Source: Oligoflexia bacterium (GTDB lineage: Bacteria > Bdellovibrionota > Bdellovibrionia > JABDDW01). Taken from it: a stretch of DNA of 64,000 nt. The translations under genes were made by a program, and so were the position numbers. The stretch spans positions 32,001 through 96,000 of the forward strand of contig JAYTHU010000062.1 of NCBI GenBank assembly GCA_043732305.1, read 5' to 3'. Each line of letters opens with the position of its first letter. Within the stretch, counting starts at the first letter, position 1. The notes below the pieces were generated by a model that was not told where the DNA came from, searched no databases, and saw only the letters and a list, made by a program, of their open reading frames with translations. This document shows, piece by piece, positions 457 to 6,906 of the stretch.

Positions 457-3108
457 TCAGTAGGTGAAACCCATTCCACCTTTTTTGTTTATAGACTTTT
501 CATTGAGTGCGCTAAACGAAACCTTCTCTAAAGTCAGCTTGCAGCTAGACCCTAAGGCGTTTGAGTTTGCAGATCCAGTCATGGTTTGCTTTTGAACGGC
601 GGCATCGATGGCCTGTTCCACTTGGGTGATCCCTTGCCGAAAGCCAGATCGTGGATCAAAATATTCATCAGCGATTGCCGTAAGAAATTTATCTTCATTT
701 TTTACGGTATAGTTTATGCCCGTTTGTCTTTTTTGCTCAGCTAACTTTTCCAGATACTTAGATTTAACGACTGCTAAAAACTCTTCTTTGGTTTGTGGAG
801 GAGTGAATACCAGAACGAATTTCATTCGATTGATGAAATATTCAGACAGAGGGTTTCGATCATTCAGCATCGCTTGTTTTAATTCTTCGCCCACTATATT
901 TGGATTTGCGACAACGGCATCTGCCCCTGCATTAGTAGCAAAAAACATTGTGGATTTTGTGGTCATCATTTCAACCACAGACTTGGCTCGTCCACTCAAA
1001 CCATCAATACTTTTACTCACGGCAATTGTTCCGGCATCTGTGACCGCTAGTAAAATATCTTGGATGTATTGAGGAGCTTTTTCGACTTCGTCAAACAGAA
1101 ACACTGTGAAAATACTTTTTTCTAACTCACGACCGATGTCTATTAGAAATTCTTCAGAAGTCCTTCCGGCGTAATGACTCAAAATGATTCTCTTGTAATT
1201 GAACCCCATGCTTTTAGCATAAACCATTGGAACAAAAGTTTTACCAACGCCCGCAGGACCTACGAGTAGTGCAAGACCCTGAGGAGTTTTACTCCCCGTG
1301 GTTTGATTGCTCGCCATCCTCTGCGCTGTGAAATCCAAAACAGCTTTAGCTTTTGGCAAACCAATCACAGCCTTGTTCATCTCCTTTTGATATTTGGCGT
1401 AGAGTTCTTTTCGTCCTTCAAAATCGAAAACACCTGGGTCAATGTTGTAGAGTTTGGCGGCAAATTTATCTAAATAATTGACGGTCACATTTGCAGGTGC
1501 CAGTCCGGGAATTTTGCTTTGAATTTTCAGGTGAGCATAAAAGCGATCTTGAAGTCTCACGGCTTTGTTCAAAGGCGATGCAATCGCATCAAACTCACGC
1601 GATAAGAAAGCAATACGGTCACGGATATTTTCTGGAAGAATTTCTTTCTTCTTAGTTTTTGCCCAATCAGCGAGTGCTTGTGTGATCATATCGTCAGGAA
1701 ACGCTGGTTTATTCACCAGAGTGAATCTCCTCATGAGACCATCATCACCGCCAAAAGCATTTTGAAATTTAGCGGGCTTGGACATAGCTATGATTCTAAG
1801 TGATCCATCTCCCAAGTAACTTTCGATTTTATTTATAATGTCCGATTCATTTCCAGTCGCACCACCGCCCCGCAATGTGTCTATTTCGTCGATAATTAAA
1901 ATGACGTCACGATTTCGAGCATAATCCATGAGCGCTTTCATTCGCGCTTCAGCTTGGCCGCGGAGAGAAGTTCCAGCTTCGATATCATCAACATGAATCT
2001 CTACAAACTTCGTCCAAACAGGAATTTCTGGAAATTTTCCCTCAGTCACGGCTTTCACAAAACTGCGAACAGTTTCAGATTTACCAGATCCAGCATCTCC
2101 AAGAATAACAACGTTCCGAGACTCTTCGGATTCTAATCCTTCGCGGATGCGATCACTCATATCTTCATCGAGTGCAAAAGTTTCTTTGCCCGCGCCAAGA
2201 TTTTCTTTGGTGTAATCTTTGAACACTCTAAAAATCATATCATTGAGATTTTCCTTGGCCCCATTTTCATTTGTGGCAGTGACATCGTTACTTGGCAAAT
2301 TAGGAGTTTTTCCGTTGAAAACGATTTTGTGTTCTAAAAGTGTAACTTGATAATTGTTTCCACCTTTTGCTTTATTAATCTCATAAGGATAAATTGAAAT
2401 CTTCTTGCTGGCAAACTCAACACCCTTAGAATCCAAGAAAGTAGCGCGGTCATCCGTCATTCCAACAGTCGCTTTTTTAGAAGCTTCAATCACCGCAAGA
2501 TCTTGGATCTCACCTTTTCTGTTTACAGCGAAATAGTGGGACGAAGGGCCGTTAGGACCTTGGCCAATAATCTTAAGAATACCAAGACCGGGTTCGGACG
2601 CTTGATAATACCAATGATGACTCACCCTGAATTCACCGATTTTGTGGCGGGCAATTTCAAATCCTGATGTACCAACGAGGGTAGAAAAATCGAGTGCCGT
2701 TTTCTCGCCATTTTGATTGATAACAAACAATCGGCCATCTACTTCCATAATAGTAAATTCAGAAATAAATTTTGAGTTAAACGTGACGGTATAATAATGG
2801 GAGCGAGATTGAGCATCGGCCCAGTTCATAATGTTATAGGGTGTGCGAGCCGGGTTCACATTGTCGTAAAATCTTTCAATATCGGCGCTAGAGAAAACGT
2901 TCTGCATTTTTTTGCCGTCAGCATCATAAATTTCGACTGTTCTGGATTTTGGAATGATTTTTAGGGTGTTACCATTAGTAAAACCAAAAATGAACTTTTC
3001 CTGCTGGCCATGGTTGACTGCAGTTGCAGATTCTGCAACTGCAGCGCTGCCCGAAACTAAAACTAAAACTGAAATTGATAAAAGAATTCCCCTGAATAAT
3101 TTAAACAT
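457..3108 (-). CDS. Signal-peptide-bearing ClpA/ClpB-like double AAA+ ATPase with unknown N-terminal domain
   Basis: Sec-type N-terminus MFKLFRGILLSISVLVLVSGSAAVA; D1 GDAGSGKS / ILIIDEID / LMRRF; D2 GPAGVGKT / FLFDEVEKA / ATNAG / FINRM; GAGGGGG SD. Confidence 0.85.
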   Translation of the reverse strand: MFKLFRGILLSISVLVLVSGSAAVAESATAVNHGQQEKFIFGFTNGNTLKIIPKSRTVEIYDADGKKMQNVFSSADIERFYDNVNPARTPYNIMNWADAQSRSHYYTVTFNSKFISEFTIMEVDGRLFVINQNGEKTALDFSTLVGTSGFEIARHKIGEFRVSHHWYYQASEPGLGILKIIGQGPNGPSSHYFAVNRKGEIQDLAVIEASKKATVGMTDDRATFLDSKGVEFASKKISIYPYEINKAKGGNNYQVTLLEHKIVFNGKTPNLPSNDVTATNENGAKENLNDMIFRVFKDYTKENLGAGKETFALDEDMSDRIREGLESEESRNVVILGDAGSGKSETVRSFVKAVTEGKFPEIPVWTKFVEIHVDDIEAGTSLRGQAEARMKALMDYARNRDVILIIDEIDTLRGGGATGNESDIINKIESYLGDGSLRIIAMSKPAKFQNAFGGDDGLMRRFTLVNKPAFPDDMITQALADWAKTKKKEILPENIRDRIAFLSREFDAIASPLNKAVRLQDRFYAHLKIQSKIPGLAPANVTVNYLDKFAAKLYNIDPGVFDFEGRKELYAKYQKEMNKAVIGLPKAKAVLDFTAQRMASNQTTGSKTPQGLALLVGPAGVGKTFVPMVYAKSMGFNYKRIILSHYAGRTSEEFLIDIGRELEKSIFTVFLFDEVEKAPQYIQDILLAVTDAGTIAVSKSIDGLSGRAKSVVEMMTTKSTMFFATNAGADAVVANPNIVGEELKQAMLNDRNPLSEYFINRMKFVLVFTPPQTKEEFLAVVKSKYLEKLAEQKRQTGINYTVKNEDKFLTAIADEYFDPRSGFRQGITQVEQAIDAAVQKQTMTGSANSNALGSSCKLTLEKVSFSALNEKSINKKGGMGFTY

Positions 3109-3150
3109 TTGACCCCCTCGAATGTTTTCCCCAATTTGAAAAGTATATAT

Positions 3151-3166
3151 TGCAATCCGCGGTCCA
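3151..3166 (-). promoter_or_regulatory. Sigma-54 (-24/-12) promoter of the AAA+ gene
   Basis: Minus strand TGGACCGCGGATTGCA = GG-N10-GC, about 40 nt upstream of ATG. Confidence 0.6.
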
Positions 3167-3369
3167 GGAAGAGGCCTCAGTGATACTTGAAGTTCATGGA
3201 CAGTTCTTAGTAATTACTTCAAGAAATACTAAAGTATTCACATTGCTTAAATAGTCTGACAAGCCGGCTTGGCAGATTTTTAGGGACATTTTAGGGCACC
3301 GTTACAGAGTAAAAAAACCTTGTTACATGAGATTTAAGCACCCAAAAGCTCGTTGCTCCAAGGCAAGAC

Positions 3370-3385
3370 GGGCATAGGCCTTGCG
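3370..3385 (+). promoter_or_regulatory. Sigma-54 promoter of 3422 gene
   Basis: GGGCATAGGCCTTGCG = GG-N10-GC. Confidence 0.6.
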
Positions 3386-3421
3386 ATAGTATTCACTTGA
3401 AACGTTACGGAGGTAACTCAA

Positions 3422-3670
3422 GTGGAACGATTATATAGGTATTTGCTTTTGGCTCTTTTTATCGTTGGTTTTGTCGGCGCAGTGTCAGGAATCGAATATT
3501 CGGGCCCTGCCGCAGTCGCCACGGTTGATTCTTCAGTCTCCCTAATCAAGGACGTGAGGCTCGCTCAAGAGATCAATAACCTCAATGAAGGACGTCTAAT
3601 GATCGAAGGTCAAGAAGACATGAACGAAAAGACTTTGACTCGCGTGGAACAGGTTTTCAGTCAGAAATAA
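3422..3670 (+). CDS. Small secreted/membrane-anchored hypothetical protein
   Basis: GGAGG SD before GTG; N-terminal hydrophobic helix. Confidence 0.65.
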   Translation: MERLYRYLLLALFIVGFVGAVSGIEYSGPAAVATVDSSVSLIKDVRLAQEINNLNEGRLMIEGQEDMNEKTLTRVEQVFSQK

Positions 3671-3712
3671 AATTCTCTTGCCCCTACTGTCGAAAACAGC
3701 GAAAAGTAGAGA

Positions 3713-6433
3713 ATGGAAAATTCAGAAACACCCCCCGCGGCGCCTACTATTGAAAAGGGTTATATCCCCACTCTTGTCGAACCAAAATGGTACGCTTTTT
3801 GGTTAGCGAAAAATTATTTCAAACCCGATGAAAATTCGACGGCTCCAACTTTTAGCGTCGTCATTCCTCCTCCAAACGTGACCGGCGTACTTCACATGGG
3901 CCATGCGCTCAATTGCACCATCCAAGATATTTTAGTTCGATTCAAAAGAATGCAAGGATTTAACACTGTCTGGATTCCAGGAATGGATCATGCCGGAATC
4001 TCCACGCAAATTGTCGTTGAAAAAATGCTCGCTAAAGACGGCATCAAGCGTGAAGTTTTGGGACGAGAAAAATTTGTTGAAAAAATCTGGGAATGGAAAG
4101 AGAAATCCGGCGGAATGATTCTTGAACAACAAAAGCGCCTAGGGATCAGTGTTGACTGGTCGCGATTGAAATTTACTTTAGATGAAGACATGTCTATGGC
4201 CGTCAAAAAAGTTTTTGTCGATTTGCACAAAGAAAAATTAATTTATCGTGGCAACAGACTTATCAACTGGTGCCCTCGGTGCGGTACCGCCGTGTCTGAC
4301 TTGGAAGTGAAACATCACGAAACCAAGGGAACCCTTTGGCATATCAAATATTTATTAGAAGATGGCACCGGCGAAGTTTTTGTCGCAACCACTCGTCCAG
4401 AAACTCTGCTAGGTGACACTGCGGTTGCCGTGAATCCCAAAGATGCTCGTTATAAAAATATTGTCGGCAAAAAAGTCAAACTTCCTCTGACCTCAAGAAC
4501 TATTCCTGTTATTGCCGACGACATGGTCGCACAAGAATTTGGAAGCGGAGTTGTGAAAATCACCCCCGCTCATGATTTCAACGATTATGAAACCGCACAA
4601 CGCAACGGTTTACCGATGATTGGAATTCTAGATAAAAAAGCAGTGCTAAATGAATATGCAGGAGCTTACAAGGGCCTCAAAGTTCACGACGCGCGTAAAA
4701 AAGTTTTGGAAGATCTAGTTACCGAAGGCTTATTGTTAAAAGAAGAATCGCATCTCATGTCTGTTGGGAAATGTGATCGTTGCGAAACCGTGATCGAACC
4801 CATGTTGTCGGACCAATGGTTTGTAAAAATCAAACCCCTTGCTGAACCAGCAATTAAAGTTGTCGAAAATAAAGATCTTAAATTCTATCCAGAAAACTGG
4901 TCCAAAACATATTTGGATTGGCTTTATAATATTAAGGATTGGTGCATTTCCCGTCAGCTCTGGTGGGGGCACCGCATTCCCGCTTGGTACTGTGATGATT
5001 GCAAACACATCACCGTCACAATGGACATTCCTCATAAATGTGAAAAGTGTGCAAGTGGAAAAATTCATCAAGATGAAGATGTTCTAGACACGTGGTTCAG
5101 TTCTTGGCTTTGGCCAATGAGCACCATGGGATGGCCTGATGAGACTCCGACACTTAAGAAATTTTATCCAACTTCTGTTCTAGTGACCGGATTTGATATT
5201 ATCTTCTTCTGGGTGGCCCGAATGGTCATGAGCGGACTACATTTTAAAAAGCAAATTCCATTTAAGGACGTTTATATCCATGCTCTGATTCGCGATGAAC
5301 GTGGGCAGAAAATGTCCAAGAGCAAAGGCAACGTTGTGGATCCATTAGACCTGGTCAATGATTATGGCACGGATGCTTTGAGATTCACGCTTGCTTCCAT
5401 GGTAGGAGCTGGACGAGATATCAAATTCAGTGAAGATCGATTAGATGGTTATCGCCATTTCATAAATAAAATTTGGAACGCGACAAGATTTTCACAAGGG
5501 GCTTTAGCCGAAGTAAAAATCGCAGAAAATATTGACGCCACCAAAATCACCTTATCTGACAAATTTATTATTTATGAATTGAAAAAGACTGTGGAAGAAG
5601 TCACAAAATCGCTTGAAGAATATCGTTTTACTGATGCGGCAACGAGTTTATATAAGTTCACTTGGAATGAATTCTGTGACTGGTACCTGGAATTTTCAAA
5701 ACCAACCTTGTATGGAACTGATCTTGAACAGAAGTCTCAATCGGGAGCTGTTCTTTATAAAGTATTAGACACTTTGATGAAGCTCTTGCATCCGTTCATT
5801 CCTTTTGTAACTGAAGAGATTTATCACTTATTGCCAAAACATGGCGAGAGTCTATGCGTTGAAAAATATCCGACAGTGGATGATCCATTCTTTATGTTGG
5901 CCTCGAGCGAAGCAGCGAGGGAAGTCGAAGCGGTGAAACTAGTTGTCTCCGCAGTGAGAAATATTCGTGGAGAGAACCGCATCAGTCCGGCAATTAAAAT
6001 TAAATTTTCCGTGGCCCTTGACGAAAAAAGTCCAACTTTTGCCGACTCAAAAAATGACAGTTTAAAAAACTTGAACATTCTGCGAGCAAACGACTCTTTT
6101 ATTCGTTCGCTAGGACGTGCTGAAGAAGTCACTTATTTTGAAACGATGCCTGAGACAAAAAAATCGGCCATCACACTGATCACGATGGGCTCTGCCCGCC
6201 TGCATGTAATTGTGCCTTTGGAGGGCTTGGTTGATTTCAATGAGGAGATCAAACGCTTAAATAAAGACTTGGAACGAGTAGCCAAAGATTATGAAATGGC
6301 CGAAAAGAAACTTTCCACTGAAACATTCATCAAGAACGCGCCCAAAGAGATAGTTGAACAAGAGAAGCTTCGTATCGTGCAACTTCAGGACAAGAAAAAG
6401 CAATTGTTGGAGAGCTTGGCTCTGCTGAAATGA
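3713..6433 (+). CDS. valS: Valyl-tRNA synthetase
   Basis: PPPNVTGVLHMGH, DWCISRQLWWGHRIP, KMSKS, C-terminal coiled coil. Confidence 0.99.
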   Translation: MENSETPPAAPTIEKGYIPTLVEPKWYAFWLAKNYFKPDENSTAPTFSVVIPPPNVTGVLHMGHALNCTIQDILVRFKRMQGFNTVWIPGMDHAGISTQIVVEKMLAKDGIKREVLGREKFVEKIWEWKEKSGGMILEQQKRLGISVDWSRLKFTLDEDMSMAVKKVFVDLHKEKLIYRGNRLINWCPRCGTAVSDLEVKHHETKGTLWHIKYLLEDGTGEVFVATTRPETLLGDTAVAVNPKDARYKNIVGKKVKLPLTSRTIPVIADDMVAQEFGSGVVKITPAHDFNDYETAQRNGLPMIGILDKKAVLNEYAGAYKGLKVHDARKKVLEDLVTEGLLLKEESHLMSVGKCDRCETVIEPMLSDQWFVKIKPLAEPAIKVVENKDLKFYPENWSKTYLDWLYNIKDWCISRQLWWGHRIPAWYCDDCKHITVTMDIPHKCEKCASGKIHQDEDVLDTWFSSWLWPMSTMGWPDETPTLKKFYPTSVLVTGFDIIFFWVARMVMSGLHFKKQIPFKDVYIHALIRDERGQKMSKSKGNVVDPLDLVNDYGTDALRFTLASMVGAGRDIKFSEDRLDGYRHFINKIWNATRFSQGALAEVKIAENIDATKITLSDKFIIYELKKTVEEVTKSLEEYRFTDAATSLYKFTWNEFCDWYLEFSKPTLYGTDLEQKSQSGAVLYKVLDTLMKLLHPFIPFVTEEIYHLLPKHGESLCVEKYPTVDDPFFMLASSEAAREVEAVKLVVSAVRNIRGENRISPAIKIKFSVALDEKSPTFADSKNDSLKNLNILRANDSFIRSLGRAEEVTYFETMPETKKSAITLITMGSARLHVIVPLEGLVDFNEEIKRLNKDLERVAKDYEMAEKKLSTETFIKNAPKEIVEQEKLRIVQLQDKKKQLLESLALLK

Positions 6434-6906
6434 GGACTAAGCTTTTAATCCCGTTATTTTTATTTCTGGTCTGTTTTATTTCTTCCGTGGAGGCTCCGGC
6501 GGGAAAAGCAAAATTGAAAGTTTACTACGCCCATCCCCTAAGTCTTTACGACACCACTCTAGAAAAGAGCGACATAGACACGTTGACTGCACTTGGATTT
6601 AAAGTGATTAATCCAAATGACCCCTCTATTGAGAGGAAGTTTCAGAAGTCACAAAACTTCGGGATTTTTCTGGATCTTGTTCGGTCGTCGGATGCGATCG
6701 CGTTTCGATCCTTCGCAGGTGGCGAGATAAGTAGCGGCGTTGTTTCAGAAATTAGAATCGCCAGTGAATTAAATTTACCTGTCATCGAATTACCGACGAT
6801 GATTTCTGAGAGAGCTTTGACTCAAGAACAAACGATAAAATTACTAGATGATTCAGGCACCACCAGACATTGCGCCGAGGTCTTGAGTACAAAATTCCCT
6901 CTGTAA
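6430..6906 (+). CDS. Secreted nucleoside 2-deoxyribosyltransferase-like (NDT-fold) protein
   Basis: Signal peptide ending VEA; KVYYAHP...GFKVINP...VRSSDAIAF...SSGVVSEIRIA..LNLPV matches the NDT/Rcl flavodoxin-like pattern with a Glu at the catalytic position; ATGA overlap with valS. Confidence 0.6.
   Translation: MRTKLLIPLFLFLVCFISSVEAPAGKAKLKVYYAHPLSLYDTTLEKSDIDTLTALGFKVINPNDPSIERKFQKSQNFGIFLDLVRSSDAIAFRSFAGGEISSGVVSEIRIASELNLPVIELPTMISERALTQEQTIKLLDDSGTTRHCAEVLSTKFPL

Follow-up and report, generated by a model that had tools for sequence, protein, structure and literature searches.

A signal-bearing two-ring Clp ATPase family of Bdellovibrionota with a relocated ClpP-docking-type motif and a possible role in turning prey proteolysis on itself

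We analyzed a 64,000-nucleotide stretch of the genome of an Oligoflexia bacterium (GenBank assembly GCA_043732305.1, contig JAYTHU010000062.1, positions 32,001 to 96,000; hereafter the window), focusing on a gene on its reverse strand (457..3108) that encodes a Clp-type ATPase of 883 amino acids (P0001). The protein is very probably exported by Sec, and its C terminus carries a motif of the type by which Clp ATPases dock on the peptidase ClpP. Our best explanation is an effector that reaches the cytoplasm of a prey cell, may dock on the ClpP it meets there, and could deregulate it much as the acyldepsipeptide (ADEP) antibiotics do. A sequence-only reading of the gene had proposed a secreted effector acting in prey or host cytoplasm; export is now well supported, whereas the evidence for the prey cytoplasm is indirect.

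The gene was defined by translation of its open reading frame (the forward frame of the same span has 27 stops), and all of its features given below lie on the reverse strand. A Shine-Dalgarno-like GAGGGGG (3113..3119) stands with the ATG 4 nucleotides downstream. Judged by eye and by our own heuristic, residues 1 to 25 (3034..3108) form a Sec/signal peptidase I-type signal peptide, with K3 and R6, a hydrophobic stretch at 7 to 18, and predicted cleavage after A23-V24-A25, before E26; no further hydrophobic segment of 19 residues follows (highest mean beyond it, 1.43). Translation from the next Met, M68, would lose a motif of the family, FxFxNG (residues 39 to 46). The Shine-Dalgarno-like motif, the nonconserved positions of internal Met residues, and the orthologues rule out a wrong start codon. 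Contigs from a second run of the same study are identical over 2519-3800, which includes the junction between signal peptide and N-domain (1621-1680 is uncovered in that run). The junction is therefore no assembly artifact, and these contigs and the orthologues together rule out a chimera. Promoter and terminator scans at the gene gave chance-level results only.

Homologues were collected with a profile search, which was needed because a word-index search gave nine matches, all of them ordinary Clps at 23 to 28%. In a pattern scan of contigs, the matches listed were ordinary Clps, with no family member named among them. From the profile search of 1.84 billion representatives, we took the best 150 matches, removed one ordinary ClpA (to the controls) and a fusion of AAA+ modules with an M41 protease (P0013), and added six genome-derived sequences for an alignment of 155 rows. 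Taxon names were available on 4 of the 20 clusters looked up (Oligoflexia, Bdellovibrionales, Bacteriovoracaceae, and Bdellovibrionota), so all named members carry Bdellovibrionota-type labels. In 401 genomes of the phylum, at least 39 matches exceeded 430 bits, in at least 37 genomes (a lower bound, as two candidates were scored per genome), and ordinary ClpAs reached at most 405 bits; with the same two candidates scored per genome, none of the 26 genomes in the class's largest sampled genus had a match above 430 bits. Within the organism's own family (f1, six genomes), there are orthologues in G001, G003, and G005, and none was found in G002 and G004. The G001 orthologue (P0011) is syntenic, lying between an acyl-CoA dehydrogenase gene and valS, which are also the immediate neighbors of the gene in the window. 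G003 has at least two family genes, each divided between two contigs. No neighbor gene was conserved across the 30 of 39 loci read, many of which duplicate sequences among the 155 rows. By sequence, the group appears to be a Bdellovibrionota Clp ATPase family of ClpA/ClpC-type derivation.

The signal peptide is a family trait. Our heuristic (not SignalP), applied to rows in which Walker A is preceded by 200 residues or more, called one in 114 of 133 full-length members and in none of 21 ordinary Clp controls; several of the 19 misses resemble, by eye, late-starting gene calls. A lipobox pattern occurs in 1 of the 133 rows only, and we rejected a lipoprotein. We compared the charges flanking the hydrophobic segment in 115 rows: the upstream side is the more positive in 92 and the less positive in 4. 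This N-in/C-out distribution rules out an N-out anchor, and even with an uncleaved anchor the ATPase would therefore face outward. The orthologues and the wider family thus bear out the signal peptide that had been read from the single sequence, and they speak against a start at an internal Met and against an uncleaved anchor with the ATPase in the cytoplasm. Taken together, these patterns make Sec export very probable and argue strongly for cleavage.

Behind the signal peptide, about residues 26 to 290 (2239..3033) form a family-specific N-domain that opens with FxFxNG. The sequence-only reading had seen here an unrecognized beta-rich region in place of the Clp N-domain, and so did we: the AlphaFold2 model (99-sequence alignment; mean predicted local distance difference test score, 85) consists mostly of strands in this part, and Clp_N has no match in the protein. 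In the organism's own genome, Clp_N occurs only on ClpB, which is a separate gene (C38). Residues 26 to 300 had no Pfam or PHROG match below an E value of 0.05, and residues 30 to 290 gave no usable ESM Atlas match. Foldseek with the full-length model gave ClpA and ClpC structures as the best matches (for ClpA, E = 1e-31 and about 21% identity), in lists filled by the AAA+ part. A profile of the N-domain recovered 40 of 101 held-out proteins and none of 10 canonical controls, and the domain is common to the family members and the AAA+-M41 fusion. That fusion (L017:4745-9001), a 1,418-amino-acid protein adjoining the G005 orthologue, combines a Peptidase M41 domain with two AAA+ modules behind the same signal peptide and N-domain; by domain content it would be an exported FtsH-like protease. 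Similar frames of 1,400 to 1,500 amino acids occur in G004, G027, G034, G106, and G118.

The remainder is a two-ring motor. Aligned to ClpA, module D1 spans about residues 290 to 555 (1444..2241) and module D2 about residues 560 to 865 (514..1431). Residues 328 to 835 align to Escherichia coli ClpA as one continuous stretch (phmmer E = 1e-26), with no ClpB-type coiled-coil middle domain, and the best NCBIfam model is ClpA TIGR02639 (E = 1e-43), at 149.6 bits against a cutoff of 993.15. The two Walker A/B sets with Arg fingers noted earlier are indeed catalytically intact: D1 has Walker A GDAGSGKS (337 to 344, with K343), Walker B D407/E408, and Arg finger R460/R461, and D2 has Walker A GPAGVGKT (617 to 624, with K623), Walker B D673/E674, N726, R761, and R824. 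Of 140 covered rows, 110 keep both rings intact and 131 keep D2, a sign that selection maintains ATP use; 21 rows, P0011 among them, have a broken D1.

The pore loops are altered. The D2 pore-1 loop (GAPPGYVG in ClpA) is deleted between L655 and I656 (1141..1146), as judged from the family alignment; its position is gapped in all 155 rows, of which 153 reach D2, and the loop is present in 12 of 12 ClpA controls. The D1 pore-1 loop, GTSLRG (379 to 384), has Leu (L382) in place of Tyr. Across the family, the D1 residue is aromatic in 97 of 155 rows and the Gly is kept in 144; several members of the close clade have Leu, Arg, or Gly as the pore residue. The accessible text of one study reports that, with E. 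coli ClpA carrying inactive D2 loops, ClpP degrades an unfolded substrate at the full rate but not folded ones (PMC8666677). Given these data, the D2 deletion, and the Leu in D1, the 883-residue protein is predicted to be a weak unfoldase at best.

A (L/I/V)-G-(F/L) tripeptide mediates the docking of Clp ATPases on ClpP, which fails in ATPases that lack it, according to the parts of PMC8745299 and PMC7966870 that were accessible. In ClpA the corresponding IGL lies in a loop after the D2 sensor 1. In the 883-residue protein this loop (832..930) is shortened and lacks an Ile-Gly-Phe (IGF)-type motif; instead, a basic Met-Gly-Phe (MGF) motif of the ClpP-docking type, KKGGMGF (875 to 881; 466..486), stands at the C terminus, in a tail of low model confidence. 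Among 144 complete rows, an IGF-type motif occurs in the loop only in 52, in the tail only in 20, in both in 2, and in neither in 70 (Fisher P = 0.003 for loop/tail exclusivity). The strict form, [KR]x0-3[IMVL]G[FY], is found in the loop in 44 of the 144 (mean of 1,000 shuffles, 2.6; maximum, 8; about 17-fold) and in the tail in 22 (mean, 2.3; maximum, 8; about 10-fold); about five of the 22 tail matches precede the Cys described below and may be due to chance. The median loop length is 48.5 residues with a loop motif and 31 in tail-only rows. In the clade of the 883-residue protein, a set picked for its tail motif, the loop is cut to 28 to 32 residues and the chains end in KKGGMGF, KRGMGF, KSIGF, GRIGF, KRIGF, or KMGF. 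An approximate tree (FastTree; 163 rows, 494 columns, four fragments dropped, rooted on ClpA) places tail-motif forms in at least four separate clades, next to loop-bearing sisters.

A second exported AAA+ protein of the same genome also ends in IGF (P0167, L057; G000:C31:77479-78639). To a Lon-like module without the protease it adds a signal peptide and a Cys tag, and it is about 50% identical to proteobacterial proteins of 320 amino acids. The sequence [IVML]GF closes the chain in all 119 relatives listed; three of these are signal-like, and the named ones are proteobacterial. By sequence, a C-terminal GF tail on AAA+ rings thus appears to be widespread, and in these relatives it is possibly a previously unrecognized ClpP-docking tail.

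The only clpP found in the organism's own genome (42591..43199, reverse strand) lies 39 kb from the gene, in clpP-clpX-lon, and encodes no signal peptide; all 35 family-bearing genomes have ClpP. We fetched 21 second ClpP-like loci, 13 from the 35 family-bearing genomes and 8 from others, with weak matches in frames of 240 to 370 residues set aside; 19 had readable frames and one was signal-bearing. A paired exported ClpP as a rule was rejected on this count. The single case (L266:223-1002, in G266) is a divergent ClpP-like protein that bears both a signal peptide and a Cys tag; in the same genome a family member adjoins lon. No barrel of the HslV or 20S type was found in five genomes of family f1.

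The docking motif shares the C terminus with a second feature, a Cys tag (SSCKLTLEKV with C856; 520..549), recognized by comparison of family tails and with a tag profile trained on other genomes, on which it scores 6.3. A tail Cys is present in 127 of 144 complete family rows versus 1 of 12 ClpAs and is invariant in the 11 rows of the tail clade. In 537 signal-bearing soluble proteins of the organism's own genome, the profile found 14 post-signal and 10 C-terminal sites and one mid-protein; in 886 other proteins of that genome, it found one post-signal site and none at the C terminus. Among 45 hand-picked tagged proteins of this genome are an ABC1 kinase, PrkA and MoxR ATPases, SelO, two ATP-grasp ligases, and DnaJ; 19 of the 45 had no Pfam match. 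Enzymes that depend on ATP or aminoacyl-tRNA, standing behind export signals, suggest the cytoplasm of another cell as their destination.

Three tagged, signal-bearing proteins resemble Leu/Phe-tRNA transferases (G000:C102:36808-39201 [L054], C239:1470-2924 [L072], and C239:2925-4619 [L063]). The assignments have E values of 2e-10, 4e-9, and 3e-4 with a profile of 25 relatives and Pfam scores near the cutoff, and two of the proteins had no solved-structure match below an E value of 0.01. The ordinary transferase, Aat, was found in 0 of 6 genomes of family f1 versus all 35 from the remainder of the class; ClpS was found in 0 of 5 genomes of f1, and ClpA with Clp_N was not found in f1, the only matches there being to ClpB, in 5 of 6 genomes. 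The N-degron partners of the exported transferases would therefore be those of another cell.

We propose that Sec exports the ATPase and that it is then passed on, like many Cys-tagged proteins, into the ATP-containing cytoplasm of the prey. There, by analogy with ClpA, ATP binding would assemble a two-ring hexamer displaying six MGF tails, which, judging from the motif, would enter the hydrophobic pockets of prey ClpP. With the D2 pore loop gone and a nonaromatic D1 residue, stable proteins would hardly be unfolded; the hexamer would rather act as a hexavalent gate opener that displaces ClpX or ClpA and admits unfolded and nascent proteins to ClpP, a protein version of ADEP that digests or disables the prey. 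The N-domain might, as a guess, select targets or location. This explanation draws on the signal peptides, the N-in/C-out charges, the intact ATP chemistry, the motif enrichment, the lack of a signal-bearing ClpP in the organism's own genome, the Cys-tagged enzymes of cytoplasmic type, the IGF tail of P0167, the ClpA D2-loop data, and ADEP mimicry. From the sequence evidence, entry into a foreign cytoplasm is probable, and docking on ClpP there, whether it opens or simply blocks the protease, is about an even call; that docking deregulates ClpP as ADEP does is a tentative proposal. Taken stepwise, hexamer formation and docking are moderately supported and ADEP-like deregulation weakly to moderately so. 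Doubtful, in our judgment, is the widest version, in which uncultured Bdellovibrionota use a route not yet described to send into prey Sec-exported Cys-tagged enzymes of cytoplasmic type, including a kit for directing prey proteolysis against the prey itself, with Clp hexamers docking through a relocated IGF motif and Leu/Phe-tRNA transferases stamping N-degrons for prey ClpS-ClpAP.

Several observations weigh against this proposal. The motif is missing from loop and tail in 70 of 144 members, among which looser variants are not enriched (11 in the loop versus 13.5 expected), so ClpP docking is not a universal function of the family, and the Fisher P value is overstated because related rows are not independent. 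The tail motif sits outside the known structural context of IGF, and the C-terminal GF of the proteobacterial AAA+ family is itself only a putative docking feature. A lasso peptide onto which IGF had been grafted is reported to have stimulated the peptidase activity of ClpP without opening its pore or competing with ADEP. As for the tag, C856 falls in a predicted strand, perhaps simply the one that ends the small domain of D2, and a plain C-x-x-x-hydrophobic pattern is not enriched at C termini genome-wide (70 of 747 versus 96 of 1,058). The predatory life of the organism and its prey are assumed from taxonomy. We identified no route of delivery into prey; the accessible text of one source describes the means by which predators of this phylum reach the prey cytosol as still unknown (PMC12428579).

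Other explanations share part of this evidence. The docking data would serve equally for a plug that occupies prey ClpP, blocks ClpX and ClpA, and halts regulated proteolysis, thereby shielding the predator's remaining effectors or preventing the turnover of antitoxins and any suicide response. The close clade, with its deleted D2 loop and the varied D1 residues of several members, has no threading loops, and both P0011 and 5 of 17 tail-motif rows have a catalytically broken D1. Yet two intact rings in most members, the 883-residue protein included, exceed what a plug needs, and coexported Leu/Phe transferases would suit promoting degradation rather than blocking it; we consider a plug quite unlikely. 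A remodeler independent of ClpP could also act in the prey cytoplasm, its N-domain gripping a complex while the D1 loop and ATP hydrolysis pull, as in ClpV or ClpB, with the GF motif a relic or secondary. The motif-less members, the largely aromatic D1 loop with its kept Gly, and an N-domain shared with the M41 fusion would all fit, but a relic would not recur at the C terminus in several clades while the loop shortens, and the 883-residue protein itself has Leu in D1. This, too, seems unlikely.

The remaining explanations place the protein closer to its maker. Sec export by itself ends in the periplasm, and a chaperone or translocon-like motor for tagged proteins could work there, or at a feeding junction, powered by ATP that escapes from prey and possibly paired with an exported ClpP; the divergent ClpP of G266 and the exported Plasmodium ATPase HSP101 lend it some precedent. 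The periplasm, however, is held to lack ATP. Neither an exported ClpP nor an HslV-type barrel was found in the organism's own genome, and a patchy spread (at least 37 of 401 genomes), the lack of conserved neighbors, and the loss of the D2 pore loop sit badly with a core export motor or a translocon motor, so that we regard this as improbable. Least to be expected is a protein that stays in or faces its own cytoplasm and replaces a lost ClpA as the partner of its own ClpP. Family f1 does lack a Clp_N-bearing ClpA, a ClpP is present, and in G266 the family gene directly follows clpP-clpX-lon. Such a neighborhood is the only one among 30 loci, however, G002 and G004 lack ClpA as well as any family member found, and the signal peptide and N-in/C-out charges are conserved. 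Ordinary ClpA and a family member occur together in 4 of 5 genomes checked, which weakens this explanation further.

Other features were noted around the gene and in the same genome. Divergent from the gene is an 82-amino-acid open reading frame (3422-3670, forward strand) with a hydrophobic N terminus and no Pfam match, conserved in the same place in G001 (L016:8248-8646). Directly after valS lies a gene for a 158-amino-acid protein (6430-6906, forward strand) with a signal peptide, a C-terminal Cys tag (RHCAEVL), and a weak DUF4406 match (E = 0.04). At L022:1131-11784 (G000:C31), a 983-amino-acid paralogue with a broken D1 stands beside four signal-bearing Cys-tagged proteins of 620 to 640 amino acids that belong to no confident Pfam family. 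A run of three genes for signal-bearing Cys-tagged proteins (G000:C50:1270-12292; L053, L048, and L051) encodes a PrkA-type AAA+ protein, a protein of 1,804 amino acids without a Pfam match, and a SpoVR/DUF444-von Willebrand factor A (vWA) fusion, resembling an exported module of the yeaGH-ycgB type. Two further pairs (G000:C212:16685-21936 and C188:319-4689) each combine a signal-bearing MoxR-type ATPase with a large partner, in one case with transglutaminase and vWA domains. Signal-bearing tagged proteins also include an M48 peptidase-ABC1 kinase fusion (G000:C148:696-5402, L049), a SelO-type AMPylase (G000:C51:27474-29279, L059), an adenosine deaminase (G000:C25:36649-37782, L082), and a DnaJ-domain protein (G000:C120:9116-10048, L086).

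The literature that we searched, which lacks most subscription papers, contained no description of the family, of C-terminal IGF tails, or of the Cys tag, and no bacterial Hsp100 exported from the cytoplasm of its producer. The D2-loop deletion, the alternation of the IGF-type motif between loop and tail, and the prey-ClpP reading are new points. If docking on prey ClpP is real, the protein would hijack a validated antibiotic target, a new way of digesting prey from within, and would point to a hitherto unknown route of protein delivery that the Cys tag marks. The C-terminal GF tail might then serve thousands of Lon-like ATPases that have no protease as a general, unrecognized signal for docking on ClpP.

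The closest known match in sequence and fold is ClpA of E. coli (PDB 7uiv, 6uqe, and 1ksf), which shares the two stacked AAA+ modules without a middle domain and an IGF-type motif. Unlike ClpA, the 883-residue protein has a signal peptide, a beta-rich domain instead of Clp_N, a deleted D2 pore loop, a nonaromatic D1 pore residue, and the docking motif at the C terminus instead of in the post-sensor-1 loop; its N-domain, pore loops, motif position, and NCBIfam score all place it outside ClpA proper. ClpB, Hsp104, and HSP101 have a middle domain that is absent here, and ClpB matches in two stretches. ClpV/TssH is a variant of Clp connected with attack between bacteria (TIGR03345, E = 9e-32; score, 110 against a cutoff of 885), but it is a cytoplasmic sheath recycler with Clp_N, which the 883-residue protein lacks. 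HslU and PAN/Mpa likewise carry the docking motif on the C-terminal tail of an AAA+ ring, with other barrels (HslV and 20S) and other motifs, and they are cytoplasmic. The sequence-only reading had named torsins (PDB 5j1s) as the eukaryotic parallel; these have a single AAA+ module and act in the endoplasmic reticulum lumen, activated by LAP1/LULL1. HSP101/ClpB2 of PTEX, the translocon for exported proteins in Plasmodium (PDB 6e10), is nearer, a two-ring Clp whose signal peptide is cleaved, as stated in the accessible text of PMC10433460, and is in fact the nearest known exported Clp, sharing the cleavable signal peptide that is predicted here. HSP101 takes a eukaryotic secretory route, keeps its own N-domain and twelve tyrosine pore loops, and has EXP2/PTEX150 rather than ClpP as its docking partner. 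The 883-residue protein lacks a pore loop in its second ring, and no neighbor conserved across the 30 loci read suggests a translocon to go with it. ADEPs offer a works-like model only: the accessible part of PMC8745299 describes them as mimics of the IGF loop of Clp ATPases that occupy the hydrophobic pockets of ClpP and deregulate it. They are small peptides that use no ATP, whereas the 883-residue protein would bring its putative ClpP-binding motif on an ATPase ring.

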